In this document: positions 2,461-61,581 of the stretch, in pieces | Position numbering within the stretch: position 1 is the stretch's first letter | Layout: each line of letters starts with the position of its first letter | Sequence record: NC_054906.1 | Length of the DNA: 64,000 nt | Direction: 5' to 3' (one strand) | From: Enterobacteria phage RB18 | The notes under the pieces: generated by a model | Databases searched by the model: none | What the model was told of the DNA's origin: nothing | The model's input: only the letters and a program-made list of their open reading frames with translations | Translations under genes and position numbers: made by a program

Positions 2461-2736
2461 TTATTTCATATTATTGAAATATTCTTCTGCGATTTCGTCG
2501 TTATCATGGTAAACTTTAGAAGACAGTTTAACATAACTTTCAGCAGTGAACATGTTAATCACAACCTTTACAGTATACCACTGACCGTCTTCATTGCCCA
2601 TTACCGCATAAGTTTCAAACATCGGATGATCAGGACCGATAACTTTAATATCATTCACTGTACGACCGAAATCTTCTGAAACACATTTCATAAAGAAGTT
2701 GAACAGTTCGCCGTAATTATCCATTTCGTTCTCCAA
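2461..2736 (-). CDS. hypothetical protein (91 aa)
   Basis: ORF immediately downstream of an early-type promoter element. Confidence 0.5.
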   Translation of the reverse strand: MENEMDNYGELFNFFMKCVSEDFGRTVNDIKVIGPDHPMFETYAVMGNEDGQWYTVKVVINMFTAESYVKLSSKVYHDNDEIAEEYFNNMK

Positions 2737-2767
2737 GTTGTTTTCTGTATCAGTAGTTGATAGTTGT

Positions 2768-2797
2768 ATAGTACCATGGAAGAACAGGGATGTAAAC
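2768..2797 (-). promoter_or_regulatory. early-type sigma70-like promoter (minus strand: -35 GTTTACA, 17-nt spacer, -10 TACTAT) with A/T-rich upstream tract
   Basis: Minus-strand reading TTTAAAAATTTTTTCACAAAACTGTTTACA-N17-TACTAT; same architecture recurs at 7304 and 7604. Confidence 0.45.
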
Positions 2798-2927
2798 AGT
2801 TTTGTGAAAAAATTTTTAAAAAGTTTTAGGGAATTCTAGGGTCAGGAGGGGCAATTAAAAGATAGGATAATATATTATAAAGGGTAGAAACTAAATGATG
2901 CCTAGAGAGGCCCAGAAAGGCCTAGAT

Positions 2928-2958
2928 ACCAAAAAGCCCCAACCTTTTGGTCGGGGCT
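2928..2958 (-). terminator. rho-independent terminator (minus strand) downstream of ORF 2966..3439
   Basis: Minus-strand hairpin AGCCCCGACC-AAAA-GGTTGGGGCT followed by a T-run; near-identical copy at 3484..3513. Confidence 0.6.
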
Positions 2959-2965
2959 AAGAATG

Positions 2966-3439
2966 TTATTTGATTTGTTTAGCAGACCAAATGCGGTCTT
3001 TAATAATTTTTTGGATGTCTTCAACATACTCTAGGTCATGAGCATGTGGGTTATCTTTAAAACTATAAGCACGAGCTAACTTTTGACCTTCAGTTTTGAT
3101 TACTAAAAGCTCTTTAAGGATAGCTTCATATCTGGAGATAATTCCTTTAACAATATTTTTTTCTTGTGTAGCTTTAGGATCTGCTTTAGGAGCAGGTTTA
3201 CCCGAAGCCTTTGCAAAAGCAGCGCCAGTAGCAACTAAACTTTTCCAGGCCATACTAACTGCATTCCCTGTAAATCCTTCGGCTTTCATATCACGAGCAA
3301 ATTGGAATCGTGATTCATCGGAAGCATCTTTATAGGAATATTTACCCGCGGCAATGGCTGCTTTTGCGACAGCTTGAATTTCGGTGCTAGATGCTTCATT
3401 TAACACCGCTTCATTTAAAAATTGAGCATATGATTTCAT
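2966..3439 (-). CDS. capsid-targeted internal protein candidate (N-terminal CTS-like leader MKSYAQFLNE|A)
   Basis: N-terminus resembles the T4 internal-protein capsid targeting sequence with an L-x-E cleavage motif for prohead protease; own TATAAATA late promoter and AGGAAA Shine-Dalgarno; Ala/Lys-rich. Confidence 0.55.
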   Translation of the reverse strand: MKSYAQFLNEAVLNEASSTEIQAVAKAAIAAGKYSYKDASDESRFQFARDMKAEGFTGNAVSMAWKSLVATGAAFAKASGKPAPKADPKATQEKNIVKGIISRYEAILKELLVIKTEGQKLARAYSFKDNPHAHDLEYVEDIQKIIKDRIWSAKQIK

Positions 3440-3475
3440 CTTATTTCCTGTTTTAATTCGTGGTTTTAATATACT

Positions 3476-3483
3476 TATTTATA
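3476..3483 (-). promoter_or_regulatory. T4-type late promoter TATAAATA (minus strand) for ORF 2966..3439
   Basis: Exact TATAAATA on minus strand, about 37 nt upstream of the ATG, directly after a terminator. Confidence 0.5.
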
Positions 3484-3513
3484 CCAAAAAGCCCCAACCT
3501 TTCGGTCGGGGCT
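3484..3513 (-). terminator. rho-independent terminator (minus strand) after the tRNA-like RNA
   Basis: Minus-strand hairpin AGCCCCGACC-GAAA-GGTTGGGGCT followed by TTTTTGG; paralogous to 2928..2958. Confidence 0.6.
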
Positions 3514-3564
3514 AAGCCTTGCGGCAACCTTGTCGGGGTTCCACCTGCTAAGGCAAGTGTTTGT

Positions 3565-3656
3565 ACGAAACGCCGGGATTCGAACCCGGTTATTAAGCAG
3601 TTGACGCTACTTAATATTTTTAAAAGGCCATATCTCGACCATATCCGAACGTTCCG
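3565..3656 (-). ncRNA. tRNA-like small stable RNA (T-arm and acceptor stem present, no canonical anticodon arm)
   Basis: Minus strand has T-arm CCGGG-TTCGAAT-CCCGG and a 7-bp acceptor-like pairing CGGAACG/CGTTTCG, but the internal region does not fold as a standard cloverleaf; T4-type phages encode such stable RNAs next to the tRNA cluster. Confidence 0.4.
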
Positions 3657-3822
3657 TCAAAAACGCTACTCGGCTTACGGCAAAGATATTTCCTCGAATC
3701 GATAATTCGGTGCGCCGTTTCTGCTGTGATGTAAGAGGGCATCAATAAACGCAAAGATTATTAACGCAATTCCTTACTCAGGGAACATCAGTCCGACGAC
3801 TTACCGGTAGCGACCCGGTTTC

Positions 3823-4173
3823 TTAATATTCTTTTAAAGCATCAATCTGCTCACGGCGTTTACGCCACAAATCAATTGCTTCATACGCGGATTCAGCATT
3901 TCGAATTAGCCGGCATTTATGTAAAGACTTATGATTTTGATATTGTGTAGATAACGGAATTTTATCTAAAAGGTCTTTACGTTCAAAGTATTCGTAACCA
4001 TCTAAGCCAAATGAACGATTTTTAAGAAATTGCCAATGACCATATTCGTTTTCGATATAAACATAATCTGCGTGCTGATAAAGCAAATTAATTACGCGTT
4101 CAGAAATAACAGTGTCATTGTGATTAAAATAGAATGTTAAATCATGAACTACTAAATAAACATTACCTTTCAT
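3823..4173 (-). CDS. hypothetical protein (116 aa) within the tRNA region
   Basis: ORF with ATG start between the tRNA-like RNA and tRNA-Arg. Confidence 0.5.
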   Translation of the reverse strand: MKGNVYLVVHDLTFYFNHNDTVISERVINLLYQHADYVYIENEYGHWQFLKNRSFGLDGYEYFERKDLLDKIPLSTQYQNHKSLHKCRLIRNAESAYEAIDLWRKRREQIDALKEY

Positions 4174-4191
4174 ATTTTCCTCACTTATAAT

Positions 4192-4267
4192 TGGTCGAGG
4201 CAGTAGGGATCGAACCTACGACCCAGGACTTAGAAGGTCCTTGCTCTTCCTTCTGAGCTATGCCCCG
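4192..4267 (-). tRNA. tRNA-Arg (anticodon UCU)
   Basis: Hand-folded cloverleaf: acceptor CGGGGCA/TGCCTCG, D-stem GCTC/GAGC, anticodon loop CTTCTAA, T-loop GGTTCGATCC, encoded CCA. Confidence 0.8.
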
Positions 4268-4271
4268 TAAT

Positions 4272-4347
4272 TGGGGTGACCGATGGGAGTCGAACCCATG
4301 ACTACGAGAATCACAATCTCGAGTTCTACCAACTGAACTACGGCCAC
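4272..4347 (-). tRNA. tRNA-His (anticodon GUG)
   Basis: Hand-folded cloverleaf: acceptor GTGGCCG/CGGTCAC, anticodon loop TTGTGAT, T-loop GGGTTCGACTCCC, encoded CCA. Confidence 0.75.
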
Positions 4348-4461
4348 ATTAATACCTACTCCAACAATCAAGATGTCTTCACACGAAATTAAGAGAAGAG
4401 TGATCAGTTCAACCCTTATAATCGCGTCAAGTAGATATTAATGTGACAGTTGTCACAAATT

Positions 4462-4536
4462 TGGCGGACGTGATAGGATTCGAACCTATAACCAATCGCT
4501 TAACAGGCGATCGCTCTGCCATTGAGCTACACATCC
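4462..4536 (-). tRNA. tRNA-Asn (anticodon GUU)
   Basis: Hand-folded cloverleaf: acceptor GGATGTG/CACGTCC, anticodon loop CTGTTAA, T-loop AGGTTCGAATCCT, encoded CCA. Confidence 0.75.
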
Positions 4537-4540
4537 AAAT

Positions 4541-4627
4541 TGGTGGGGAGTGATGGAGTCGAACCACCCGAGTCGCAATGACAATGGATTTACAGTCCAC
4601 ACCGCTACCTCTACGGGATAACTCCCC
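4541..4627 (-). tRNA. tRNA-Tyr (anticodon GUA), class II with long variable arm
   Basis: Acceptor GGGGAGT/ACTCCCC, anticodon stem-loop GTGGA-CTGTAAA-TCCAT, 15-nt variable arm, T-loop GGTTCGACTCC, encoded CCA. Confidence 0.75.
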
Positions 4628-4633
4628 TTAATT

Positions 4634-4708
4634 TGGTGGCCCTGGGTGGAATTGAACCACCATCTGGCGATTATGAGTCGCTTGCTTGAACCTTCCAGCT
4701 ACAGGGCC
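4634..4708 (-). tRNA. tRNA-Ile (anticodon CAU, Ile2/lysidine type; Met not excluded)
   Basis: Acceptor GGCCCTG/CAGGGCC; anticodon stem-loop GCGACTCATAATCGC is the Ile2-type context; encoded CCA. Confidence 0.7.
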
Positions 4709-4709
4709 T

Positions 4710-4785
4710 TGGTGCTGATTGACGGAATCGAACCGCCGACCTTCTCATTACAAGTGAGTTGCTCTACCTATTGAGCTAAATCAGC
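4710..4785 (-). tRNA. tRNA-Thr (anticodon UGU)
   Basis: Acceptor GCTGATT/AATCAGC, D-stem GCTC/GAGC, anticodon loop CTTGTAA, T-loop GGTTCGATTCC, encoded CCA. Confidence 0.8.
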
Positions 4786-4790
4786 AAAAC

Positions 4791-4880
4791 TGGCGGAGGC
4801 GATAGGATTTGAACCTATGAGTCGCCGGAGCGACTGCCGGTTTTCAAGACCGGTGCATTAAACCACTCTGCCACGCCTCC
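4791..4880 (-). tRNA. tRNA-Ser (anticodon UGA), class II with long variable arm
   Basis: Acceptor GGAGGCG/CGCCTCC, anticodon loop CTTGAAA, long variable arm, T-loop GGTTCAAATCC, encoded CCA. Confidence 0.8.
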
Positions 4881-4886
4881 AAATAT

Positions 4887-5537
4887 TTATATATTGTTAA
4901 TTTGATTTAGAATTCTTTTTGCTTGAGTATGACTTACGCCAATATGCTTAGCATATTTAGACAATTCGCCACGTTTAGAAAAATCATATAATTTAGAAAT
5001 TTCTATTCTTCTTTTTCTTTCATCCGCAGAAACTTTTGCTTCGTTCGCTTTTGCTATTTTACGTTTAGCTTCTTGAGAATGAGTTTTACCAGCAAAGCCA
5101 TTCTTCATTAATCCATTTGAAGACCATCCTTTTAATTTTCCGTTAGAATGTGCCTTTTTAACACCCAATGAAATTAATTCGCGCTGCTGATCTGTCATAG
5201 GATAATTATTTATATGGTCCCATCCACCTTCACCTCCAAGTTTTAAATTATACACATCTGGTCTATTTAAAAACTCTTCTGTGACAATATTTTTCTCGGC
5301 TTCAAGCATAGATTCTTTATCGTCAAAATACTCTAATATTTCTTTAGAAAAATTTTCTATACCATATTTATCTTGGGCTCTTTTTAATAATTTACCAGAA
5401 CCCATATATCCATCATCTAAATTTTCGGTAGAATGCACACCAATATAAATTTTATTATTAATTTTATTTGTTATTTTATAAAGATAAAAATGCATATCAG
5501 TCCCTAATAAAGAACTGAGCGTCTCACGACGAGTCAT
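4887..5537 (-). CDS. segB: GIY-YIG homing endonuclease SegB-like, inserted within the tRNA cluster
   Basis: N-terminal GIY-YIG signature YLYKITNKINNKIYIGVHS...GYMGSG; basic C-terminal DNA-binding-like region; sits between tRNA-Gly and tRNA-Ser as segB does in T4-type phages; true start may be the internal ATG at 5495, which has a better Shine-Dalgarno. Confidence 0.8.
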   Translation of the reverse strand: MTRRETLSSLLGTDMHFYLYKITNKINNKIYIGVHSTENLDDGYMGSGKLLKRAQDKYGIENFSKEILEYFDDKESMLEAEKNIVTEEFLNRPDVYNLKLGGEGGWDHINNYPMTDQQRELISLGVKKAHSNGKLKGWSSNGLMKNGFAGKTHSQEAKRKIAKANEAKVSADERKRRIEISKLYDFSKRGELSKYAKHIGVSHTQAKRILNQINNI

Positions 5538-5541
5538 AAAT

Positions 5542-5615
<74 letters not shown>

Positions 5616-5620
5616 AAATT

Positions 5621-5707
5621 TGGTGCGAGAAGTGGGACTCGAACCCACAAGGAAATCATTCCGCAGCATTTTAAGTGCTGTGCCTTTACCAATTTGACCA
5701 TTCTCGC
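5621..5707 (-). tRNA. tRNA-Leu (anticodon UAA), class II
   Basis: Acceptor GCGAGAA/TTCTCGC, anticodon loop CTTAAAA, long variable arm, T-loop GGGTTCGAGTCCC, encoded CCA; abuts tRNA-Gln as a Gln-Leu dimer. Confidence 0.8.
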
Positions 5708-5708
5708 G

Positions 5709-5781
5709 CTGGGAATAAAGGACTCGAACCTTTGCATCCTGGAATCAAAATCCAGTGCCTTACCAACTTGGCTAATTCCCA
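5709..5781 (-). tRNA. tRNA-Gln (anticodon UUG)
   Basis: Acceptor TGGGAAT/ATTCCCA, anticodon stem-loop CTGGA-TTTTGAT-TCCAG, T-loop AGGTTCGAGTCCT; CCA not encoded. Confidence 0.8.
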
Positions 5782-5793
5782 ATTATTAACAAA

Positions 5794-5811
5794 GGCTCTC
5801 AAATAAGAGCC
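5794..5811 (-). terminator. hairpin plus T-run (minus strand) between ORF 5868..6392 and tRNA-Gln
   Basis: Minus strand GGCTCT-TATTTG-AGAGCC followed by TTTGTTAATAATT. Confidence 0.4.
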
Positions 5812-5867
5812 CTTGATGATAGAGGGTATTAATCAGTGCGGTATGAGTTAATAATAACAAATAATTC

Positions 5868-6392
5868 TTAAAGCAAATTAAACATTTTAACGGTCGGCAA
5901 AACAATTTCTTTTTCTATATAAGAGTATTTAACACTCTCAACTACGCGCAGAAAATCATAATCATAATATTCAGAAGCACTGCCTAAAATATTAATAAGT
6001 CCTTCAAGCACTTTATTACAATTCACAAAGAATAAGTCAAATACACGTTCTTCATCTTCTTCAGATTTATTACCAAGGTCAACTTCTATATCAAAGACCT
6101 TTTTAATGAATTCTGGATAAAGCTGGTCTGAGAACAGTCCTTCAACCAAGTATTCATAGATAAAAAGCGATTGCTCGCTGAACAAGCCATTACCACAATA
6201 ACGTTCAGCTTTAGTACTAGAATGTCTGCTTTTAAACTTCTTTAAAAGATATTGGAACTGTAAGATTTCATGCTCTTCTACGCCAAACAGTGTTTTAGTT
6301 TTATAGTTGTCACCATCATTTTCCCAGGTAGTGACATCAATTACGTAACCCTGCGGAATTGTAGTACCTAAACAAATATTCATTTTCACCAC
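5868..6392 (-). CDS. hypothetical protein (174 aa)
   Basis: ORF in minus-strand array upstream of the tRNA cluster. Confidence 0.5.
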   Translation of the reverse strand: MVKMNICLGTTIPQGYVIDVTTWENDGDNYKTKTLFGVEEHEILQFQYLLKKFKSRHSSTKAERYCGNGLFSEQSLFIYEYLVEGLFSDQLYPEFIKKVFDIEVDLGNKSEEDEERVFDLFFVNCNKVLEGLINILGSASEYYDYDFLRVVESVKYSYIEKEIVLPTVKMFNLL

Positions 6393-6682
6393 GCTGCATT
6401 AATATAAGTATATTTAATACATTCAAGACTTAAAGGATTCTTGAAAATATCATATTCAAGAGGACCTTTTTCTGTTTCAATAAAGAAATCAAAATTTACT
6501 GTATTAAATTTACGGTCTTCCTTCACTAATTTAACCTGAGAAGATGAACGGTCAATGTAAACCTTTTCAACTTCAAAACATGTTAAAATGCCATAATCAT
6601 CAATCAAGGCTTTAGCTGCTTCTTGATCATATTTATATCCATTTTCAATGGACGATACTTTCGCATAAAGTATCATTATCAA
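6386..6682 (-). CDS. hypothetical protein (98 aa)
   Basis: ORF with short start/stop overlaps to both neighbours. Confidence 0.5.
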   Translation of the reverse strand: MIMILYAKVSSIENGYKYDQEAAKALIDDYGILTCFEVEKVYIDRSSSQVKLVKEDRKFNTVNFDFFIETEKGPLEYDIFKNPLSLECIKYTYINAAW

Positions 6683-7089
6683 CCTCTATCAACAATAGCA
6701 TGAGTATGGGCATTTACGATTTGCCACCAGTCGAAACGATTGGAACCATAATCTGGTTTATTTTCATTTTCTTTAATGATATCACGCAGTTTATCTTCTG
6801 TTTCAGCATACGCAATTAAATCATCATATCCACCGCAAGGATAATAATTATCACCTGCGAATAAAAGAAAATTTACCTTAGATGGATTTACGTAATAATG
6901 GTCTTTAGGATATTTAGTTCCTCTCCAATCAGTTACTTCAACATAACGGTAAGAAAATCCATTTTTACTTTCAATCCAACTCCACGCTTCAAAAGGAGTA
7001 TTAAAAACTTTATCAGGTATTAAATTACCTTCAAAATGAGAAGGATTTGCATAATCCCCGGCATAAACATAATATTCGTTAATACTCAT
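6679..7089 (-). CDS. hypothetical protein (136 aa)
   Basis: ORF with ATGA-type overlap to the downstream gene. Confidence 0.5.
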   Translation of the reverse strand: MSINEYYVYAGDYANPSHFEGNLIPDKVFNTPFEAWSWIESKNGFSYRYVEVTDWRGTKYPKDHYYVNPSKVNFLLFAGDNYYPCGGYDDLIAYAETEDKLRDIIKENENKPDYGSNRFDWWQIVNAHTHAIVDRG

Positions 7090-7275
7090 TTATTCACCTT
7101 TAGAAATTTTATCCATAACGATAGCGATTAAACCAATTAAAAATGCTACTACAAGCGAAAACACATTTTCTGCTGTAGTTAATAATCCGCATATAAATCC
7201 AACAAACATTGAAAAACTAAAAGCGGAAGCAGAAATTGCAATAGCAACATTTCGAATTAATTCACAACGTTTCAT
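7090..7275 (-). CDS. hypothetical small hydrophobic protein (61 aa)
   Basis: Single long hydrophobic segment SAFSFSMFVGFICGLL...VVAFLIGLIAIV; early-type promoter element immediately upstream. Confidence 0.45.
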   Translation of the reverse strand: MKRCELIRNVAIAISASAFSFSMFVGFICGLLTTAENVFSLVVAFLIGLIAIVMDKISKGE

Positions 7276-7303
7276 TTTATTCTCCTCGGTAGTTGATAGG
7301 GTA

Positions 7304-7333
7304 ATAGTATCACTACCCTATCTAAAAGTAAAC
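7304..7333 (-). promoter_or_regulatory. early-type promoter element (minus strand: -35 GTTTAC, 18-nt spacer, -10 TACTAT)
   Basis: Minus strand GTTTACTTTTAGATAGGGTAGTGATACTATTACCCTATCAA; shares an identical 24-mer with the copy 300 bp upstream. Confidence 0.45.
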
Positions 7334-7567
7334 TTATTTTTTACGAAAAATTGATTTATATTTATCAGCCCATTTCTCAATGACTTTTGCCGGGCCATAG
7401 ATAACAAAGTAATCGCCAAACTCTTCACCACCGAGTTGACCGAAATCATCTAATGCATCACGAAGAACTCCATGAGGCATTTCACCCATTTTATCTTTCT
7501 TGCCAGTGTAAATAAACTCAACTTTTACATCAGCAGTTTCAGCAATAAATTCTTGATACGTTTTCAT
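7334..7567 (-). CDS. ipI: internal protein I-like capsid-targeted protein (CTS leader MKTYQEFIAE)
   Basis: ATG at 7567 with GGAG Shine-Dalgarno (track ORF starts at an upstream GTG); N-terminus is the internal-protein capsid targeting sequence with L/I-x-E cleavage motif; position between 57B and the tRNA region matches the ipI locus. Confidence 0.7.
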   Translation of the reverse strand: MKTYQEFIAETADVKVEFIYTGKKDKMGEMPHGVLRDALDDFGQLGGEEFGDYFVIYGPAKVIEKWADKYKSIFRKK

Positions 7568-48031: not shown

Positions 48032-48430
48032 TTATACTCTGTTACTGGAAGCCAGTTGTAGTTTTATCTGCTCAATATCATCAGGGTTATCGATGACCGA
48101 AAAGCGTATTTCTACTATCAGAGTATAATCATCATAAACCGGTATTACATTAACTGCTAATTTATCAATACGTGGCTCATAGTTTCTTACTGCGCTTTCG
48201 ATATTACGCTCAACCGTGTCAGCAGTAAGAGGAGTCATATTCTCAAAAAGTTGGTCAGATAAATCGCATCCAAATTCAGGGTCAAACGGTCTTGAACCTT
48301 TTCTTGTTGTAATAATTCCTAAAAGACTATTTTTAATTGACCTTAATCCAAGTGATCTTGAAACGTCTTTGTTCCAATCCATTTTCATTTCTGGGTCAAT
48401 ATCAGAATAAAGCTTATTAATATTTGCCAT
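48032..48430 (-). CDS. 25: gp25 baseplate wedge protein (132 aa)
   Basis: Size and order match T4 gp25. Confidence 0.93.
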   Translation of the reverse strand: MANINKLYSDIDPEMKMDWNKDVSRSLGLRSIKNSLLGIITTRKGSRPFDPEFGCDLSDQLFENMTPLTADTVERNIESAVRNYEPRIDKLAVNVIPVYDDYTLIVEIRFSVIDNPDDIEQIKLQLASSNRV

Positions 48431-49056
48431 TACAATAGCTCAAAGAATTCTTTGAGTCCTCTTATTACGTGAGCATGGGTTTTTCCACACTCTGGACACT
48501 TAATTGGAACAGCCAAATAAACAGTAGGCTTTAAAAGCATATCTTTTATAGCTACAATATCTGACTCTGTGATGATAGAATATAAATCTTCCAGTTCTTT
48601 TTCATTTAAGTCTTCAACTGGAATGCTTTCCCCGTTAGCATGAATCGTTTCTATGCATGATACTATCATGTGGGCTATATTTTTATCATCAAAAATTTTA
48701 GGGTAATGGAATTTAATTTTAATGTCATCCAGTGTATACCAGAGGTCTTCTGGTGCATCTATTTGTGTATGTAATAGATTTATATGGGTTGGTATTTCAG
48801 TTCCACAGGTGCACTTCCAGGAGTTTTCGTGATTAACTTCTCCAAGAGAATGCGCCCATAAATGAATCAGTAATAGTTCTGATTCTTGGCGGTTTAAATC
48901 TTTTGCATTTGTACAGTCTTTGATTAGCTTTTTAACAATCTCTTCTACTGAACCATTCTTTTTAGCAGTAATAAGTTCTAGATATTCTTTAAGAGTAAAT
49001 GCGCGACAGTTGATTATTTTAGAACCAACTCTCACATCAAATTTGTATTCATACAT
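48430..49056 (-). CDS. 26: gp26 baseplate hub protein (208 aa)
   Basis: Size and order match T4 gp26. Confidence 0.93.
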
Positions 49057-49077: not shown

Positions 49078-49085
49078 TATTTATA
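49078..49085 (-). promoter_or_regulatory. late promoter TATAAATA (minus strand) for genes 26-25
   Basis: Exact TATAAATA on minus strand, interleaved with the divergent gene 51 promoter. Confidence 0.55.
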
Positions 49086-49089
49086 AATA
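49082..49089 (+). promoter_or_regulatory. late promoter TATAAATA for gene 51
   Basis: Exact TATAAATA 18 nt upstream of the gene 51 ATG. Confidence 0.55.
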
Positions 49090-49106: not shown

Positions 49107-49859
49107 ATGGCAAACATTATTCGTTGTAAATTACCAGATGGTGTTCATCGTTTTAAACCATTTACGGTAGAAGATTATCGAGATTTTTTGTTAGTTCGAA
49201 ACGATATAGAACATCGGTCACCACAAGAACAAAAAGAAGTAATTGCTGATTTAATTGCTGATTATTTTGGAGATTATCCAAAGACTTGGCAACCATTTAT
49301 ATTTTTGCAGGTATTTGTAGGGTCAATAGGTAAAACTAAAGTACCAGTCACATTTGTATGTCCAAAATGTAAAAAAGAAAAGACAGTTCCATTTGAAATA
49401 TATCAAAAAGAATTAAAGGAACCTGTTTTTGATGTAGCTAATGTTAAAATTAAATTAAAGTTTCCTTCTGAGTTTTATGAAAATAAAGCAAAGATGATTA
49501 CTGAAAATATTCATTCTGTCCAAGTAGATGAAACGTGGTATGATTGGAAGGAAATTAGTGAATCAAGTCAAATAGAACTTGTTGACGCCATCGAGATAGA
49601 AACATTAGAAAAAATTCTCGATGCAATGAATCCTATTAATTTAACATTGCATATGTCATGTTGTAATAAGTATGTAAAAAAATACACTGATATAGTAGAT
49701 GTGTTTAAGCTATTAGTTAACCCAGATGAAATATTTACTTTTTATCAAATCAATCACACGCTTGTAAAAAGTAATTATAGCTTAAATTCAATAATGAAAA
49801 TGATTCCTGCCGAGCGCGGATTCGTATTAAAACTGATTGAGAAGGATAAACATCAATGA
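49107..49859 (+). CDS. 51: gp51 baseplate hub assembly catalyst (250 aa)
   Basis: Size and order match T4 gp51. Confidence 0.93.
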
Positions 49860-54381: not shown

Positions 54382-55346
54382 TGTATTCTTTAGAGGAATT
54401 TAATAATCAAGCAATAAACGCAGACTTCCAACGTAATAATATGTTCAGCTGTGTTTTTGCTACAACTCCATCAACTAAAAGCTCATCGTTAATAAGCTCA
54501 ATTAGTAACTTTGCTTATAATAACTTGGGTCTAAATTCAGATTGGTTGGGATTAACTCAAGGTGATATTAATCAGGGAATTACCACGCTAATTACCGCTG
54601 GCACACAAAAACTAATAAGAAAATCGGGAGTCAGTAAATATCTTATTGGCGCTATGAGTCAGCGTACTGTCCAGAGTTTATTAGGCTCATTTACAGTTGG
54701 TACATATTTAATTGACTTCTTTAACATGGCATATAATTCATCTGGATTGATGATATATTCTGTAAAAATGCCAGAAAATAGATTATCTTATGAAACTGAC
54801 TGGAACTATAACTCTCCTAATATTCGTATAACTGGAAGAGAATTAGACCCTTTGGTTATTTCATTCAGAATGGATTCAGAAGCTTGTAACTATCGTGCAA
54901 TGCAAGACTGGGTTAACGCTGTTCAAGACCCAGTAACTGGATTGCGTGCTTTACCGCAAGATGTCGAGGCAGATATTCAGGTTAATCTTCATTCTCGCAA
55001 TGGATTACCACATACTGCGGTGATGTTCACTGGCTGTATTCCAATATCTGTGAGTGCTCCTGAGTTATCGTATGATGGAGATAACCAAATAACTACATTT
55101 GATGTTACTTTCGCTTATAGAGTCATGCAGGCTGGAGCAGTTGATAGACAAGCTGCCCTTGAATGGCTTGAATCTGCTACTATAAATGGTATTCAAAGCG
55201 TTCTCGGAAATAGTGGAGGTGTTACTGGACTATCTAATTCGCTTTCACGACTTAGTAGATTAGGAGGAACTGCAGGAAGCATTTCAAATATTAATACTAT
55301 GACAGGAATTATCAATTCGCAAAGTAAAATATTAGGAGCAATATAA
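54381..55346 (+). CDS. 54: gp54 baseplate-tail tube initiator (321 aa)
   Basis: Size and order match T4 gp54. Confidence 0.95.
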   Translation: MYSLEEFNNQAINADFQRNNMFSCVFATTPSTKSSSLISSISNFAYNNLGLNSDWLGLTQGDINQGITTLITAGTQKLIRKSGVSKYLIGAMSQRTVQSLLGSFTVGTYLIDFFNMAYNSSGLMIYSVKMPENRLSYETDWNYNSPNIRITGRELDPLVISFRMDSEACNYRAMQDWVNAVQDPVTGLRALPQDVEADIQVNLHSRNGLPHTAVMFTGCIPISVSAPELSYDGDNQITTFDVTFAYRVMQAGAVDRQAALEWLESATINGIQSVLGNSGGVTGLSNSLSRLSRLGGTAGSISNINTMTGIINSQSKILGAI

Positions 55347-55350
55347 CAAT

Positions 55351-55380
55351 GGGGACCGAAAGGTCCCCATATTTTTATTT
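55351..55380. terminator. bidirectional hairpin terminator between convergent gene 54 and the alt region
   Basis: Hairpin GGGGACCGAAAGGTCCCC followed by ATATTTTTATTT. Confidence 0.7.
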
Positions 55381-55665
55381 ACGGAATGAAATAAAAGCAG
55401 CAACTGAAGCAACAGAGGTTTCTTCAATATAAACTTCAATTTTTACCGGAGCTTCTGACTCAAATTTACCTGTTACTACACCCTGAAAAATACTTTCAGT
55501 CTGTTCTGGCTTTGAAAAATTTTCAGAAGGAAAAATTCCGAACTTTTTATCTGTTCCAAAAATTTTAATAAATTCATCGTAAACTGCTTCATTAAAAGCA
55601 TTATCAGCAGGAATAACGCCTTCAACTACAAGTTCTTGACCTAAAAAGCGCAAAGAAGATTTCAT
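55375..55665 (-). CDS. hypothetical protein (96 aa) downstream of the Alt paralogs
   Basis: ORF at the distal end of the alt transcription unit. Confidence 0.6.
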   Translation of the reverse strand: MKSSLRFLGQELVVEGVIPADNAFNEAVYDEFIKIFGTDKKFGIFPSENFSKPEQTESIFQGVVTGKFESEAPVKIEVYIEETSVASVAAFISFRK

Positions 55666-55725
55666 TTTGTGTTCCTCATGTTATGTCAGTAAGACTACTA
55701 TAACACAATATGAGGGACTTGTAAA

Positions 55726-57783
55726 CTACATTTTGAACTTTTTAGACATTCCGTTGATGTTAACCAAAGAAGCTAAGATTTGAGAAACTTCGTTTTCCTC
55801 TTCTTTTGATTCTTCTACAAGGAATTGATTAAATCCAGCCATTGGACGAACTTCTCCGGTTTCCATTAGATAGTCACCATCATATACTGATTCTTCTAAT
55901 TGTTCAGAAGGAGGAACGATTGTACCTTCGATTAGATACTTGTTATAAGCAGTTTCTTTCATAAAGTAAGTACTTACTTTATTAATCTTCAGTAAAATTC
56001 CACGCGGTAGAATAACTTCAGCTTCTGATGGAAATCCTGTTAAATGACCTGGAACGATAACTTTGATTCGCTCAGCTCCTTTAATTACCATACCCACGCT
56101 AGTTTCAGCATCTTCATTAGCATATGTAGAATGACTACCCATATGCATCAAATCTTCTGCATCAACAGAACCTTCTCCTTCACCAGAAAATACTGCGCCG
56201 GAATCATCTAGAGCCATATAGTTTTTACCATGCTCACCGAAGATATTTGGTTTAAGTGATGTCGATACGAAGTTCTTGAAATAGAACATTTTGTTTTCAA
56301 TGTTATGACGCAAAGTTTTAAAGGTAACTTCTTGTCCACGATAAAGCGTAGTTCCTGGAGGAAGAACTGAACCTTTAGCGAATGCAGAATCCAACGTCTC
56401 GATGTGCTTAATAGCTCGTTCCATATATTCTTCACGGGTAGAATCTGGTTTACCCAAAAGGAACGAGTTCATTTCAACATATGAATCTGCACAATAATCT
56501 TCAATTACATCAGATTCAGCTTGAGTTAATCCTTTTGGAGTTACTTCGGTGCTTGCGTATTCATATGCCTGAGCAGCAGATTCATTAATCAATTTATAAA
56601 TGCCATTCATGACAAATTGAATAATAGCTGTCTTTTCATCTGGCGTAGCTTTAGAACCTTTAACCAAATCATTGATAATTTTCTTAATAACATCAAAGCT
56701 ATTAGAAATATTAATATCAGCAAGATCGCTTAAAATTTTATCAGTTTTATAATCAAAGAATTCTTTATTCTTTAAATATTCTTGAGAACCTTGATATGTT
56801 ATATCGCTCTGCAACTTGATGGATGGATCACGTAAACGTGCATGGGCTAATGCAATATGATTTCGGAAGTTTTCTAGTTCATAATCGCTAGATTTAAAAC
56901 GAGAAGCACTCCTCATACCACCGATAGCTCCTTTGTTGAAGTTTGAACCAATCTGAATAACGCCAGAGTTCATTGGTCCTTCTGCTTTATATACCGGAAC
57001 TTTGGATTCAAACTCTTGATATTTCTTAGCAGCGAAGCTATCACCCTGAAGTGAAGCATCAACAGTAGAATATTGAGCTTGTGCTGCTAATCGACGACTA
57101 ATTTTAGTTTTCTGAATAACAGCTTGGTCAGTGCGCTTATCATTTTCTAAAGCAATAGAAGCAGCAACTGCGACAGCTTTAGGAACAGCATTACCTGTTT
57201 TAACGTCTACATAAACATCACCAACCTTTGATTCAACTTTTGTGAATAACTCAGCTGAAATAGGAGGTACACCTGGAATGTCTTCTAAATTGGCATTTTT
57301 ACGGTAAACCATAATATATGCATATTTCTTATCATAGTCCCAGATTTCCTTTAAAAGAACATATCGGCCTGCTCCTTTAGTACGTACTAAACGGTCAGCA
57401 ATAACTTGCATTTGACGAGCAGCGCCATTTGTTTTACTCTTTAGTACGCGGAATAAGCATGCATCAATTTTATACTGTTTCATTGTTTGAAGAGCAGTAT
57501 CAAAAACAGCATTAATGACGCCAATTGGATTTCCACCCAAGTTTTTAAGCTTAACTAATGATAGTTTCTCATTAACACCTATCATTACGATATGCATCAT
57601 TTTGTCGCCTGGCTTAACGTTTTTATTCGTATCACCGCCAGAGGTGTATGTACAAAATCTAAATCCGGGGAGAACGCTTTCTTCACCGGCTTGAATAGCA
57701 AAAATTTGTGGTATTTTATGCTTAGGATTTAAGTTAACAACCGGCGCCGAAGCGCCGTCAAATAATTCTGTAATAAGTTCCAT
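55726..57783 (-). CDS. Alt-like ADP-ribosyltransferase paralog (685 aa)
   Basis: Paralogous to the upstream alt gene along its length (N-terminus MELITELFD..., shared blocks KYAYI..., NFVSTSL); ART motifs R (YRGQ), S-T-S (FVSTSL), E-x-E (SEAEVILPRG). Confidence 0.85.
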   Translation of the reverse strand: MELITELFDGASAPVVNLNPKHKIPQIFAIQAGEESVLPGFRFCTYTSGGDTNKNVKPGDKMMHIVMIGVNEKLSLVKLKNLGGNPIGVINAVFDTALQTMKQYKIDACLFRVLKSKTNGAARQMQVIADRLVRTKGAGRYVLLKEIWDYDKKYAYIMVYRKNANLEDIPGVPPISAELFTKVESKVGDVYVDVKTGNAVPKAVAVAASIALENDKRTDQAVIQKTKISRRLAAQAQYSTVDASLQGDSFAAKKYQEFESKVPVYKAEGPMNSGVIQIGSNFNKGAIGGMRSASRFKSSDYELENFRNHIALAHARLRDPSIKLQSDITYQGSQEYLKNKEFFDYKTDKILSDLADINISNSFDVIKKIINDLVKGSKATPDEKTAIIQFVMNGIYKLINESAAQAYEYASTEVTPKGLTQAESDVIEDYCADSYVEMNSFLLGKPDSTREEYMERAIKHIETLDSAFAKGSVLPPGTTLYRGQEVTFKTLRHNIENKMFYFKNFVSTSLKPNIFGEHGKNYMALDDSGAVFSGEGEGSVDAEDLMHMGSHSTYANEDAETSVGMVIKGAERIKVIVPGHLTGFPSEAEVILPRGILLKINKVSTYFMKETAYNKYLIEGTIVPPSEQLEESVYDGDYLMETGEVRPMAGFNQFLVEESKEEENEVSQILASLVNINGMSKKFKM

Positions 57784-57786
57784 GAT

Positions 57787-59880
57787 TTATCCTTGAACGA
57801 ACTTGTAAGGCATGTTTGTAATATCTATGCAAGACGCAATAATTCCAAGAGATGATTCTACTTTCTGTTTAACATTTGATGAAACAAATGATGCAAAGTC
57901 AACTCTGTCTTCTATTTCAATATCACCTGTCATTGCAACCAATTCACCAGTTTCCATTAAATGGTCTCCGTCATAGATTACCGATTCGGTGAGTTCTTCG
58001 GTGGTCATAACTTCAGCTTGAATGAGTTTTGTATTATTAGACGTGGTTCCGTCATTATTAGAAGCATCAGTTATTTTATTAACTTTGACCATCAATCCGC
58101 GCGGTAGAATAACTTCAGCTTCTGTTGCTATTCCGAGATTTCCTGGATATACAACATTAACTTTATGAGCTCCATCAATTGCCCATCCTATTTGAACTTT
58201 AACGTATTCAGGATTTTCTTTATACGCTCTTATTTCGCTTGGATTAATAGTTATTCCTTCTTCATTTTTATCAACTGTCAATTCATTACGAGCTTCTGGT
58301 TCTAAAAGACCAATACCAGCATGTGTAATTCCAAAACGTCCAAAAATGATAGGAGTTAAAGAAGTAGATACAAAATTTCTGAAATAGAACACTTTATTTT
58401 TAACTAGTGCTTCGTATATAGGAGCAGTCATACTTTGAGCACGATAAACTGTGATGCCTTCCGGTATGCGGTCACCATTTTCAAAAGCTGAATCTAAGTT
58501 ATTTATAGCAGATTCAATTTCTTTTTCACTCATTACATCATATCGTTCTGGATTGTAACGACCTAAAAGAAGATTATTGATGTCAGTATATCCTGAACCG
58601 CAATATTCTCTAATGCCACGCTTTTGTGATGGAGTATATTTAGAACCATCGCGGGCAATAGTAATATCAATCATTGGACCAGCACCAATTCCAGAAAAAC
58701 TGTAAATCATTCGTTTGAGGAATTTAGTTTTTGCTGCGTTCCAGGAATTTTTAGTTATTTCTTCCCAGACTTCATCTGGTTGTCCTTTACGATTTTTATT
58801 ATGATTAGCAAGCCATTTATCTTTATAATCTTCAAAGAATTGATTTACAGCTGCTGCGTATTTCTCTAAACATTTTATTGAAGTAGTTGGTTCATTTTTA
58901 ATTGCATTAAAAATTACTTCTTTAATTTTTTCTGAAACTTCACCGACTTGACTCATTGGAAAGAATTTATAATCATAGTGAAGTTCATCTGCCGTTCCTT
59001 CAGCAATAATTTTTGCTGCCTTTGTTTTAGAAGCTAATGAATTAATTCCAATTTTCATTTCTTCTGCTTCGGGAATTAAAGGTGCAGTAGCTGGTTTATT
59101 AAAATTAGCTGCTGTAGATTCATACTTCTGGAATAATTCACTTTCAAATCTAGAAGATTCCAATGACTGACTTTGTGCAATTGCTCTACGGGAAATTTTA
59201 ACTTTAACGATTACAGCTTGGTCAGAACGTTTATCATTTTCTTGCGCAATAGATGCTGCAATTGCCTCATTTTTAGTTACTTGGGCTCCAGTATCTTTAT
59301 TGATATAAACATCACCGACTTTCGATTCAACTTTAGTAAAGAGCTCGGTACTAATTTCCGGAACTCCTGGAATGTCTTCTAGTGATACATTTTTGCGATG
59401 TATAAGAATATATGCATACTTTTTATCGTAATCCCAGAGTTCCTTAAGAAGGACGTATCTACCACCTGAACGACTACGGATAAGTCTATCAGCAATAACT
59501 TGAATTTGTCGAGCTTGGCCAGCAGTTTTAGACTTAAGAATACGAAGCATACAAGCATCAATTTTATATTGACGCATTGTTTGCATTGCAACAGTAAAAA
59601 CTGAATTGATATAATTAATCGGGCTTGGACCAAGACCTTTTAATTTGGCAATTGAACCTTTAGCAGTTAATGTAAAAGGAACAATATGCATCATTTTATC
59701 GCCCATCTTTAAATCGCGATTAGTATCACCTCCAGATGTATAGGTACATAAACGAAAGCCTGGTTGTTCAATTGCATCATCAACATGAACTGAAAAAATT
59801 TGTGGTATTTTCTTCTTTGGATTTAAGTTTGTAATCGGAAGAGTAGTATCTTCGTCAAATAATTCTGTAATAAGTTCCAT
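57787..59880 (-). CDS. alt: Alt ADP-ribosyltransferase, virion-packaged (697 aa from second ATG)
   Basis: ART motifs R (YRAQ), S-T-S (FVSTSL), E-x-E (TEAEVILPRG); own TATAAATA late promoter; N-terminus MELITELFDE. Confidence 0.9.
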   Translation of the reverse strand: MELITELFDEDTTLPITNLNPKKKIPQIFSVHVDDAIEQPGFRLCTYTSGGDTNRDLKMGDKMMHIVPFTLTAKGSIAKLKGLGPSPINYINSVFTVAMQTMRQYKIDACMLRILKSKTAGQARQIQVIADRLIRSRSGGRYVLLKELWDYDKKYAYILIHRKNVSLEDIPGVPEISTELFTKVESKVGDVYINKDTGAQVTKNEAIAASIAQENDKRSDQAVIVKVKISRRAIAQSQSLESSRFESELFQKYESTAANFNKPATAPLIPEAEEMKIGINSLASKTKAAKIIAEGTADELHYDYKFFPMSQVGEVSEKIKEVIFNAIKNEPTTSIKCLEKYAAAVNQFFEDYKDKWLANHNKNRKGQPDEVWEEITKNSWNAAKTKFLKRMIYSFSGIGAGPMIDITIARDGSKYTPSQKRGIREYCGSGYTDINNLLLGRYNPERYDVMSEKEIESAINNLDSAFENGDRIPEGITVYRAQSMTAPIYEALVKNKVFYFRNFVSTSLTPIIFGRFGITHAGIGLLEPEARNELTVDKNEEGITINPSEIRAYKENPEYVKVQIGWAIDGAHKVNVVYPGNLGIATEAEVILPRGLMVKVNKITDASNNDGTTSNNTKLIQAEVMTTEELTESVIYDGDHLMETGELVAMTGDIEIEDRVDFASFVSSNVKQKVESSLGIIASCIDITNMPYKFVQG

Positions 59881-59903
59881 CATAGCCTCTCTAGTGTTTA
59901 TTC

Positions 59904-59911
59904 TATTTATA
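59904..59911 (-). promoter_or_regulatory. late promoter TATAAATA (minus strand) for alt
   Basis: Exact TATAAATA on minus strand 24 nt upstream of the alt ATG. Confidence 0.55.
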
Positions 59912-59919
59912 AAATTAAA

Positions 59920-59931
59920 GGCCCGAAGGCC
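59920..59931 (-). terminator. hairpin terminator (minus strand) after the gene 30 / alt.1 unit
   Basis: Minus strand GGCCTTCGGGCC followed by TTTAATTTT. Confidence 0.5.
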
Positions 59932-59932
59932 T

Positions 59933-60121
59933 TTAATAATCTAGTGGTAAGAGAGTACGGTATATTTCAAACTTTGGACCTTTTTCATAGGCATCAAATG
60001 TTTCTGTGAATTTATTATAAGCATATGCATCTACAAATTCGAGAATGACTTGTGATACAGAAGTAGAAACATCTCCACCTTCTTTTTGAGCAATGACAAT
60101 TGTTTCTAAGTAAGCTTTCAT
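59933..60121 (-). CDS. hypothetical protein (62 aa) between gene 30 and alt
   Basis: Small ORF overlapping the gene 30 stop by 4 nt. Confidence 0.55.
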   Translation of the reverse strand: MKAYLETIVIAQKEGGDVSTSVSQVILEFVDAYAYNKFTETFDAYEKGPKFEIYRTLLPLDY

Positions 60122-61581
60122 AAACCAGTTACCTCATGAAAATCACCAAATACATCCTCGAATGTATTAGCTTTAGTTTTATCTTCACGTAAACGAATCG
60201 CAATCGGAAGAAATAATTTAACGTAATCAGTGCGGCCATCAGATTTTAACCAACCGTTACATTCGCACTCTAGAATTTTTCCAATATAATAATTTTGGTT
60301 TTCCATAATGCGAGTACGGTCAAGTTCATGTGATTTTACGCCGGCTTTATCTTTTAAGCCTGAACCAGCATTTACCTTAATTTTTCCACACTCTGACTCA
60401 AGAATAAATCCACCCGCTTTAGTAGGGTCTTTACGGTGAGGATAAATTCCTACAATTTTTAAATCAACATCAATTACTTCTTTAAATTTATAGAGATTTT
60501 TTGAACGAGCATTTTCCCATAATCCATCGATATTTTTGAGAATAATACCTTCAAGACCTTGGTCAATATACTTTTTATAAATTACCTTAGCTTCATCTAG
60601 GTTATTTACTACTTGGTTTTCAATTAAAATTACTTTATCATATCCTGATGTCATTTGTTCTAGTTTAGAAAAACGTACATCATATTTTAAACGAAACACC
60701 GGAAGACCATATATTTCTACTAATGGAACATAGTCCCAGACCTGAAACTTCATGCATTGAGCTTCTTTTTCTGAAATAGTTCCCTTTAAAGATTTATTGG
60801 CGATGCCATTAGATGCAGTACGTGATTCAGCTACTTCGGCGAATTCTTTAGCTTTACTAATTTCAGGATAAGCATCAAAAAGAAAATCTAGGCCTTCTGG
60901 CTCCTTTTTAACTTGCTCATGGTATACCAATTCGCCATCAATTAACACACCTTCTGGATGAATCTGGCGGGCTTCAGCGGTCATTTTAATTAACTCTTCC
61001 TTAAGAAGATCTAATCCTAGATATTCATTACCAGCTCGTGATAAAAGACGAACATCATCTAATTCATCACCTCTGACTTCAGCAAAGCACCGAGCTCCAT
61101 CAGCTTTTAACTGGGCAAAAGCTGGAAATTTGATATTCTTATTAATGCCTTTTTCATCATAAGAACTTGCAAGCATTTGAGGTTGTTCAGGAATTAAACC
61201 TGGCCAAACTTTGTTTGCAATAGATACTGAAGCACCGCATTCAAGGTCTCGCATCATCACACGACGCAAAACTTCAACATCATCTTTTTTACCGTCAGTA
61301 ATATATCCAGTTAATTCCTCAATTGCCGCATTTCCAGTCAATTTCCGAGTAGCTAACGTTAATTCAATGAAGTCAAGCATATCGGTAAGAGTCAACATTC
61401 CAAAACTCTGGGTAGCAATACCCGGTTTAGGCCATTTCTTGATATAATACTGTAACCCGCGAGAATAAGTCAGACGATATACTCGTTTAAGCAATTCATT
61501 ATCTTTGTTCTTTTCAAGAATTGCTTGCTTCTGCTTAGTTGAACCAATAGATGCTATTTCGTTCAGAATTTTAAGAATCAT
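60118..61581 (-). CDS. 30: gp30 ATP-dependent DNA ligase (487 aa)
   Basis: Adenylation motif KADGARC; N-terminus MILKILNEIASIGSTKQKQAIL; size equals T4 DNA ligase. Confidence 0.97.
   Translation of the reverse strand: MILKILNEIASIGSTKQKQAILEKNKDNELLKRVYRLTYSRGLQYYIKKWPKPGIATQSFGMLTLTDMLDFIELTLATRKLTGNAAIEELTGYITDGKKDDVEVLRRVMMRDLECGASVSIANKVWPGLIPEQPQMLASSYDEKGINKNIKFPAFAQLKADGARCFAEVRGDELDDVRLLSRAGNEYLGLDLLKEELIKMTAEARQIHPEGVLIDGELVYHEQVKKEPEGLDFLFDAYPEISKAKEFAEVAESRTASNGIANKSLKGTISEKEAQCMKFQVWDYVPLVEIYGLPVFRLKYDVRFSKLEQMTSGYDKVILIENQVVNNLDEAKVIYKKYIDQGLEGIILKNIDGLWENARSKNLYKFKEVIDVDLKIVGIYPHRKDPTKAGGFILESECGKIKVNAGSGLKDKAGVKSHELDRTRIMENQNYYIGKILECECNGWLKSDGRTDYVKLFLPIAIRLREDKTKANTFEDVFGDFHEVTGL

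Follow-up and report, generated by a model that had tools for sequence, protein, structure and literature searches.

A tandem pair of Alt-type ADP-ribosyltransferase genes in phage RB18 and the remnant of its second member in T4

Two adjacent alt-like genes on the minus strand

We analysed a stretch of 64,000 nucleotides (nt) of Enterobacteria phage RB18 (record NC_054906.1), hereafter the window, and focused on a pair of genes for ADP-ribosyltransferases (ARTs) related to Alt of phage T4. An initial annotation, made from the letters of the window, had reported two adjacent minus-strand open reading frames (ORFs) of 685 and 697 amino acids (aa) and described them as tandem paralogous Alt-type genes. 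Both lie exactly where they had been placed, and we refer to the upstream one as gene B and to the downstream one as gene A:

57787..59880, minus strand: gene B, ortholog of T4 alt carrying the wV7/T2/T6-type allele, 697 aa (ORF, BLASTP, Pfam and PHROG)
55726..57783, minus strand: gene A, second Alt paralog, 685 aa (ORF, BLASTP, Pfam and PHROG)

An alternative ATG of gene B, one codon upstream (59883), gives a protein of 698 aa. The 4.9-kb region around the pair shares 97-98% DNA identity with phages REP1, AV122, wV7 and hundreds more; the source phage is T4-like, of the genus Tequatrovirus, and within it T2/T6-like. The T4 gene order is kept, with genes 29, 48 and 54 on the plus strand and alt.-3, A, B, alt.1, gene 30 (DNA ligase), 30.1 and 30.2 on the minus strand. 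The pair occupies the position of the Alt family: DNA ligase/alt.1 lies on one side and alt.-3/baseplate gene 54 on the other, and the baseplate genes are read from the opposite strand.

The paralogy of the two genes stands on their alignment, on family matches and on intact motifs in both. The proteins share the N-terminus MELITELFD, as annotated, and align over their full length with 41% identity (BLASTP, E 1e-161). The tandem duplication is also visible in the DNA, as direct repeats that are 70-78% identical at a spacing of ~2094-2103 nt. Both proteins match PHROG 802, 'Alt-like RNA polymerase ADP-ribosyltransferase', from end to end (A, E 2e-255; B, E 7e-274), and Pfam PF03496 ADPrib_exo_Tox (A, E 1.8e-19; B, E 1.6e-37). 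A further family, PF26846 Tevenvirinae_ADPRT, is recorded for homologs 98% identical to them, as well as for two genes found in tandem on one metagenome contig. Full-length similarity to Alt (PHROG 802) comes together with the Tevenvirinae-specific N-terminal domain, the latter seen through close homologs, and with a C-terminal R-S-E domain that has the Arg, Ser-Thr-Ser and Glu-x-Glu motifs.

These catalytic residues, claimed for both copies by the initial annotation, withstand careful alignment: R482, S507-T508-S509 and E587-A-E589 in A, and R480, S505-T-S507 and E587-A-E589 in B, so that neither copy lacks them. They are invariant across alignments of 19-21 diverse homologs. Glu-x-Glu in R-S-E ARTs goes with arginine specificity, and A and B are predicted to be active arginine-specific R-S-E mono-ADP-ribosyltransferases. 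In T4 Alt, the substitution E577A abolishes activity (PMC11404850). This residue is probably the second Glu of the motif, if numbering starts at the upstream ATG, because the 682-aa T4 sequence has these residues at E574 and E576. Against wV7, A has a ratio of nonsynonymous to synonymous substitution rates (dN/dS) of 0.052, with 0.038 in its ART domain, and B one of 0.019. Such values point to strong purifying selection on both genes; neither is a pseudogene or codes for an obvious pseudo-enzyme. It is close to certain that the pair consists of two intact, paralogous genes for Alt-type ARTs.

The identity of each gene can be given with precision. B is 99.7% identical to the Alt of wV7 and 97.3% to that of T2 and T6. 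Its 72% overall identity to T4 Alt is unevenly spread (N-domain 100%, centre 35-37%, ART domain 65%, C-propeptide 94-99%), and we class it, from sequence, as the ortholog of T4 alt. A is 99.1% identical to a T6 protein and 98.8% to a T2 protein, and is best classed as the intact form of T4 alt.-1 plus alt.-2 and the ortholog of JS98 altb. The pair is thus real and correctly identified, but ordinary: its members are 98-99% identical to hundreds of annotated entries.

A common domain plan with unrelated centres

The divergence of the central regions, also claimed at the outset, is pronounced. A and B agree best in the N-domain (aa 1-238; 68% identical) and least in the centre (aa 239-425; 15%), with the ART domain (37%) and the tail (44%) in between. 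AlphaFold2 (AF2) models, built from alignments of only 19-21 sequences and with a mean predicted local distance difference test score (pLDDT) of 75 and 74, give the two proteins one plan: an alpha/beta N-domain (~aa 12-235), a helical centre (~250-470), an ART domain (~470-625) and a C-terminal tail. The central variable domain, for which the initial annotation had proposed structure prediction, comes out as all-helical in both. The regions between the propeptides map as follows:

59167..59862, minus strand: B, N-terminal basic alpha/beta domain, aa 7-238 (AF2 pLDDT ~70-87; PF26846 in close homologs)
58606..59166, minus strand: B, central all-helical variable region, aa 239-425 (AF2 pLDDT ~73-91)
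57985..58605, minus strand: B, ART domain, aa 426-632 (R480 at 58441-58443, STS at 58360-58368, EAE at 58114-58122)
57070..57765, minus strand: A, N-terminal basic alpha/beta domain, aa 7-238 (AF2 pLDDT ~65-87)
56509..57069, minus strand: A, central all-helical region specific to the A/altb lineage, aa 239-425 (AF2 pLDDT mostly 80-92, ~50-75 at 239-260)
55891..56508, minus strand: A, ART domain, aa 426-631 (R482 at 56338-56340, STS at 56257-56265, EAE at 56017-56025)

The N-domain is strongly basic, with an isoelectric point of 9.5 in B and 9.7 in A and a net charge of +10 to +13 (A, +13), as expected of a head protein embedded in DNA. The ART domain and the tail are acidic in both proteins. 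The centre of A is 46% identical to that of JS98 altb and 15-17% to those of B and T4 Alt.

Searches with the separate parts returned little. The isolated N-domains and central regions gave nothing meaningful against Pfam at E values up to 10. A phmmer search of the A centre against 1.84 billion representative proteins found no genuine relative; it also missed the known A-type relatives and is a weak guide to distribution. Its single match (P0121) was rejected as spurious, being a repeat protein that matches one 30-residue stretch nine times. A GNAT acetyltransferase fold for the N-domain was likewise discarded, since the structural match was non-specific and the N-domain fell short of a specific GNAT match with an acetyl-CoA pyrophosphate-binding loop (Q/R-x-x-G-x-G/A). 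In a sequence search of the PDB there was no solved Alt structure; A had no match, and B matched CdtA and iota Ia weakly (E ~5e-4).

Both ends of A carry gp21 processing motifs

T4 Alt is cut by the prohead protease gp21 after ITE-6 and LTE-619, as established by mass spectrometry, which removes 63 C-terminal residues and leaves a mature protein of 68.2 kDa (PMC5694885). The GenBank annotation X15811 also records the removal of six residues from its N-terminus. Both sites have counterparts in A and B:

59863..59880, minus strand: B, N-propeptide MELITE with cleavage motif ITE-6, identical to T4 Alt
57766..57783, minus strand: A, N-propeptide MELITE with ITE-6 motif
57985-57993, minus strand: B, cleavage motif LTE-632 ending the ART domain
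55891-55899, minus strand: A, cleavage motif LEE-631 ending the ART domain
57790..57984, minus strand: B, C-propeptide, aa 633-697, with YDGDxLMETGE and a ...KF end (aligned to the 63-residue C-propeptide of T4)
55729..55890, minus strand: A, C-propeptide, aa 632-685, with YDGDYLMETGE and a ...KFKM end (by alignment)

At the C-terminal site, an L-x-E followed by Ser stands at the aligned position in both proteins (L629-E-E631/S in A, L630-T-E632/S in B). Its Glu is invariant in 21 aligned sequences, and so is the YDGDxLMETGE beyond it. Both copies thus have, as sequence motifs only, what gp21 processing calls for: ITE-6 and an L-x-E some 55-65 residues from the C-terminus. The region beyond the C-site is predicted to be at least partly disordered in both, with pLDDT below 50 at aa 629-685 of A and 652-697 of B, and ~72-75 at 633-651 of B. 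The predicted mature masses of A and B are 69.2 and 70.1 kDa. By analogy with Alt, we consider it probable that A is packaged, processed and injected in the same manner, mainly because the cleavage motifs of the propeptides are conserved as in T4 Alt. The mature T4 head holds ~40 copies of Alt.

One late transcript may span B, A and alt.-3

The initial annotation had assigned a late promoter to the upstream copy, and an exact T4-type late promoter box does lie 20 nt before the first ATG of B. The elements and neighbouring genes that bear on transcription are:

60118-61581, minus strand: DNA ligase gene 30, next to alt.1
59933..60121, minus strand: alt.1 homolog, 62 aa, Pfam Phage_blade, upstream neighbour of B
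59917..59934, minus strand: GC-rich hairpin (AAAGGCC-TTCG-GGCCTTT) at the alt.1 stop codon, which it overlaps, with a T-rich run after it (read from the sequence; unlisted by the consensus scan)
59904..59911, minus strand: late promoter box TATAAATA of the alt operon (exact match)
55697-55725, minus strand: early-type promoter-like site GTTTAC-17-TATAGT with TG before TATAGT, overlapping the A stop codon, upstream of alt.-3
55375..55665, minus strand: alt.-3 homolog, 96 aa, DUF5498, last gene ahead of the terminator
55349..55370, no strand assigned: bidirectional terminator hairpin between alt.-3 (minus) and gene 54 (plus), with a 9-bp stem, 6 GC pairs and T-runs on both strands

The hairpin at 59917..59934 is likely to terminate transcription from upstream, just before the late promoter. 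At the start of B, the TATAAATA box is followed by a Shine-Dalgarno GAGAGG and by ATGATG. Gene A begins 3 nt past the TAA stop of B, with its own Shine-Dalgarno AAGGA, and no terminator-like site was found from B down to 55349-55370, which is the likely end of the late alt transcript. For B, late expression is indicated by the box; for A, it is deduced from the 3-nt gap and the missing terminator. The simplest reading is a single late transcript that would span B, A and alt.-3, with A and B presumably co-transcribed. The early-type site may serve alt.-3, giving it early plus late expression. A separate late promoter for A was considered and dropped, since none is adjacent and the only other same-strand TATAAATA box may be there by chance.

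That second exact box lies inside B (58500-58507, minus strand), 717 nt upstream of the A start. It may act as a late promoter within the gene or have arisen by chance; across the window, 24 boxes were counted where 9.9 are expected at random. An Rfam scan of 54500-61000 returned a single match, far below threshold.

T4 has lost most of gene A

The annotation of T4 calls its small genes alt.-1 and alt.-2 'an old duplication of the first part of gene alt' (NP_049810, NP_049809). Direct comparison of the T4 and window DNA leads to a different account. The alt.-1/alt.-2 DNA of T4 shares 96% identity with the opening 348 nt of A, and the two proteins (PHROGs 23015 and 15247) match A residues 1 to ~117. 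In a blastn comparison with the window, T4 corresponds to the window sequence without ~1.69 kb (55746-57435), and the missing segment is flanked by 9-bp direct repeats, CTAAA(A/G)AGT:

57436..57444, minus strand: direct repeat CTAAAGAGT, upstream end of the segment deleted in T4 (blastn)
55737..55745, minus strand: direct repeat CTAAAAAGT, downstream end of the segment deleted in T4 (blastn)

The T4 remnant carries a further 1-nt deletion in an A-run, which splits it and accounts for the two ORFs. Since the comparison shows a loss between repeats, alt.-1 and alt.-2 are what remains of a deletion: T4 lost most of a full-length gene and did not partially duplicate a fragment.

The distribution of the pair makes T4 the exception. 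The body of A is present at 90-99% DNA identity in 400 records of the phage collection, and the T4-type deletion junction was found in one piece in 91 of the 497 records with the locus, including T4, RB55, RB59 and natural isolates. T2 and T6 both carry the 685-aa and 697-aa pair, where the only labels that A bears are 'hypothetical protein; alt.-1' and 'apparent insertion in alt.-2' (AYD82791, AXN58232). Nolan et al. 2006 listed alt paralogs in several T4-like genomes (PMC1524935). From the ~400 of 497 records, T2 and T6, JS98 and the work of Nolan et al., we conclude that the two-gene state is the common, ancestral and already annotated condition. The duplication itself is already known, from the T4 annotation, from Nolan et al. 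2006 (PMC1524935) and from the annotation of JS98.

The diverged second copy pointed out by the initial annotation is not unusual: the pair is found in ~400 of 497 Tequatrovirus records, T2 and T6 among them, and is old, JS98 having alta and altb. That annotation had also envisaged that both copies might be identical to T4 genes of established redundant function, and this is not the case either, T4 having alt and the decayed alt.-1/alt.-2. The downstream copy is the more uniform of the two, being at least 90% identical in all the ~400 records that have it. The canonical alt comes as two very different alleles: a protein search gives ~291 records at least 95% identical to the window allele and 212 in a 60-80% band that holds T4 Alt (~71%).

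Domains of the pair have evolved along different paths

The difference between the two alleles has sharp boundaries. Aligned with T4 alt DNA (5455-7503 of locus L001), B matches at ~98% in its first 720 nt and at 93-98% beyond nt 1850 (the two flanks, nt 1-720 and 1850-2094, span 93-100%), but at 45-75% in the 1.1-kb middle (nt 720-1850), which holds the centre and the ART domain. The mosaic indicates exchange of the centre and ART domain as a cassette within one gene.

Comparison with the Dhakavirus JS98 (2499-6713 of locus L007) separates the history of these cassettes from that of the N-domain. For centre, ART domain and C-propeptide, A is 46/59/58% identical to altb and B is 34/62/53% identical to alta. 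In these effector parts A groups with altb and B with alta, and the duplication is therefore older than the split between Tequatrovirus and Dhakavirus. The N-domains group by genome (A-B 67%, alta-altb 65%, cross-genus 42-47%), which is a signature of concerted evolution of this module, or of co-adaptation to the head core of each phage. Recent gene conversion as the origin of the 68% N-domain identity is ruled out here by the synonymous sites of A and B, which are saturated (dS ~1.5). Older concerted evolution of the N-domain is supported by the cross-genus comparison.

Two tracts are nucleotide-identical between the genes. One is the first 28 nt, encoding MELITELFD (57756-57783 and 59853-59880), within a 31-nt repeat at the two starts that is 97% identical (repeat family D7); the other is 25 nt around the Glu-x-Glu codons (56011-56035 and 58108-58132). 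The tracts could reflect translation-initiation constraint or micro-conversion.

Metagenomes add chimeras and more distant pairs. In proteins P0003-P0006, the N-terminus of B is joined to the body of A, with crossovers near residues 50, 100, 200 and 220. P0006 (5001-7061 of locus L003) comes directly after alt.1 on a contig that stops ~30 nt past the gene, and could be a recombinant or fused alt or an assembly chimera. A more divergent tandem pair with the same synteny lies on metagenome contig SRR23924977_2808 (2242-6423 of locus L004). Its second gene is 74% identical to A (centre 60%, ART domain 72%) and its first ~64% to B, so both lineages are diversifying among relatives that have not been cultured.

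The second paralog as a packaged and injected enzyme

The arrangement reads as a late operon in the order terminator hairpin, TATAAATA, B (the canonical alt), A (the second paralog), alt.-3 and terminator. Its two large products appear to be built alike, with a MELITE N-propeptide, a basic N-domain, a variable helical centre, an ART domain resembling C3, VIP2 and Vis, and an acidic C-propeptide. If they follow T4 Alt, both would be made late and placed in the prohead core, and gp21 would trim them at either end. Injected with the DNA, they would then draw on host NAD+ and ADP-ribosylate host proteins as soon as infection begins. The modules they have in common, propeptides and N-domain, would serve packaging, and those that differ, namely the centre and the ART-domain loops, would decide which targets are chosen. 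To this reading as a whole, two head-packaged and injected arginine ADP-ribosyltransferases with different target-recognition parts, we give a probability of about 0.75.

We lean slightly towards targets of A and B that are different or only partly overlapping, and regard the different substrate suggested by the initial annotation as a reasonable proposal. This estimate draws on the unrelated centres, the variable stretch between STS and ExE (where identity drops to 12-28%), the differing residue three before ExE (Phe in A, Ile in B, Pro in T4) and the conservation of each type across genera. In C3-like and iota-like toxins, the position three before ExE helps to recognise the substrate.

Several points weigh against the reading of two injected enzymes with distinct recognition parts. 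T4 and ~18% of its relatives do without A and have no apparent handicap on laboratory hosts; A could therefore be redundant to a large degree. Gene A lacks its own promoter, and no TATAAATA box is adjacent to it. Confidence in the AF2 models is only moderate (mean pLDDT 74-75, 19-21 sequences). The searchable literature, whose coverage excludes most subscription journals, returned no experiment, functional study or proteomic dataset on A or on the function of a second paralog, and for this reason the packaging, activity and targets of A rest on homology.

The strongest competitor is a copy kept for dosage, packaged and injected like Alt and acting on the same targets (RNA polymerase alpha and other Alt substrates) to provide more enzyme or robustness. 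The two proteins do share domain plan, catalytic residues and propeptide sites, both have the Glu-x-Glu that goes with arginine specificity, and A was lost in T4 and 91 records without a known phenotype. We nevertheless find plain redundancy unlikely: the centres are unrelated (15%), the ART domains are only 37% identical, and A is under strong purifying selection (dN/dS 0.05) and retained by ~80% of relatives. The two types have also been kept apart since before the Tequatrovirus/Dhakavirus split, and this conservation across genera argues against simple redundancy.

Two other explanations take away either the injection or the activity of A. It might stay out of the head and act late in the producing cell, on host or phage proteins during assembly, like the non-injected ModA and ModB. 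Late expression, as deduced above, would have A present in the cell before lysis, and nothing places it directly in virions. Yet A has kept MELITE (within the 28 identical nt), the N-domain, the L-x-E/S site and the C-propeptide, features linked in T4 Alt to prohead incorporation and gp21 processing, which makes this scenario quite improbable. Less probable still, and very unlikely, is a catalytically dead core protein that fills or organises the head. Such a role would agree with the description of alt both as an enzyme and as a protein of the head core (PMC11404850) and with the larger amount of DNA packaged by alt- mutants (PMC3012670), but R482, S507-T-S509 and E587-x-E589 are intact and invariant, the ART domain of A has a dN/dS of 0.038, and the 25 nt at the Glu-x-Glu codons are identical to those of B despite saturated synonymous sites elsewhere.

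A more far-reaching form of the preferred reading, that of two injected enzymes, can be put forward only tentatively, and we hold it less likely to be right than wrong. In it, A would be a second injected effector with targets unlike those of classical Alt, possibly a counter-defence or host-range factor on natural hosts. It would have escaped fifty years of T4 genetics, the reference phage having deleted it. The N-domain and propeptides would form a 'packaging chassis' evolving in concert, onto which effector cassettes (centre plus ART domain) could be swapped; this picture fits the two alt alleles and the natural chimeras of B N-terminus and A body.

Alt is the textbook case of a phage enzyme that enters the cell together with the DNA and reprograms the host, and nearly all functional work on it was done in T4, which lacks the second paralog. 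Most relatives of T4, T2 and T6 among them, encode a pair of such enzymes with unrelated centres and may well inject both. If A has targets of its own, pictures of early host takeover based on T4 are incomplete, and T4 (natural deletion) and T2/T6 (intact) offer a ready-made comparison. To what was known of the duplication, our analysis adds the mechanism of the T4 deletion, a census, both gp21 sites in A, and domain-wise evidence for a concerted packaging module and exchangeable cassettes.

Other features of the window

A cluster of 10 tRNA genes lies at 4192-5781 on the minus strand (Arg-tct, His, Asn, Tyr, Met-cat, Thr, Ser, Gly, Leu and Gln). T4 has eight tRNA genes (Arg, Ile, Thr, Ser, Pro, Gly, Leu and Gln); compared with this set, the phage of the window would have extra His, Asn and Tyr tRNA genes and no Pro.

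Two overlapping TATAAATA boxes on opposite strands (TATTTATAAATA) occur at 49078-49089, between divergent ORFs at 48430-49056 (minus strand) and 49107-49859 (plus strand). Judging from this arrangement, they look like a back-to-back pair of late promoters.

Comparison with known systems

The closest characterised relative is T4 Alt (NP_049811, 682 aa), a head-packaged and injected NAD+:arginine mono-ADP-ribosyltransferase. One biochemical property that counts towards membership of the Alt family is known from T4 Alt alone (reviewed in PMC5512222 and PMC9503650). B is the positional ortholog of T4 Alt between alt.1/30 and alt.-3/54, with the same propeptide motifs, late-promoter arrangement and R/STS/ExE residues; it differs in having EAE where T4 has EME, and its central and ART cassette is a different allele. 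A shares the whole domain plan of T4 Alt with 47% identity, which falls to 17% in the centre and 37% in the ART domain.

The 'alt.-1'/'alt.-2' proteins of T2 and T6 and the second Alt-like protein of wV7, RB32, RB51 and others are the same gene as A, of 685 aa and in the same position. Only the annotation differs ('hypothetical protein', 'apparent insertion in alt.-2', 'Alt-like ...'). In JS98 and JS10 (Dhakavirus), the synteny 30 - alt.1 - alta - altb - alt.-3 - 54 is identical and both genes are named; the difference is that the JS98 N-domains pair within the genome and not by paralog.

More distant relatives share the catalytic domain. ModA and ModB of T4 are small (~200 aa), early-expressed and not packaged, and their genes are outside the alt region of the window. 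They belong to the same Alt/VIP2 clade of R-S-E ARTs (PMC5512222). The C3-like and binary-toxin ARTs (Vis 4xzj, C3bot 1r45, VIP2 1qs1, CPILE-a 5gtt and Certhrax 4fxq), with 13-25% identity, are toxins or effectors that bacteria secrete and whose targets are eukaryotic or bacterial, and they are built without the phage N-domain, the helical centre and the gp21 propeptides.

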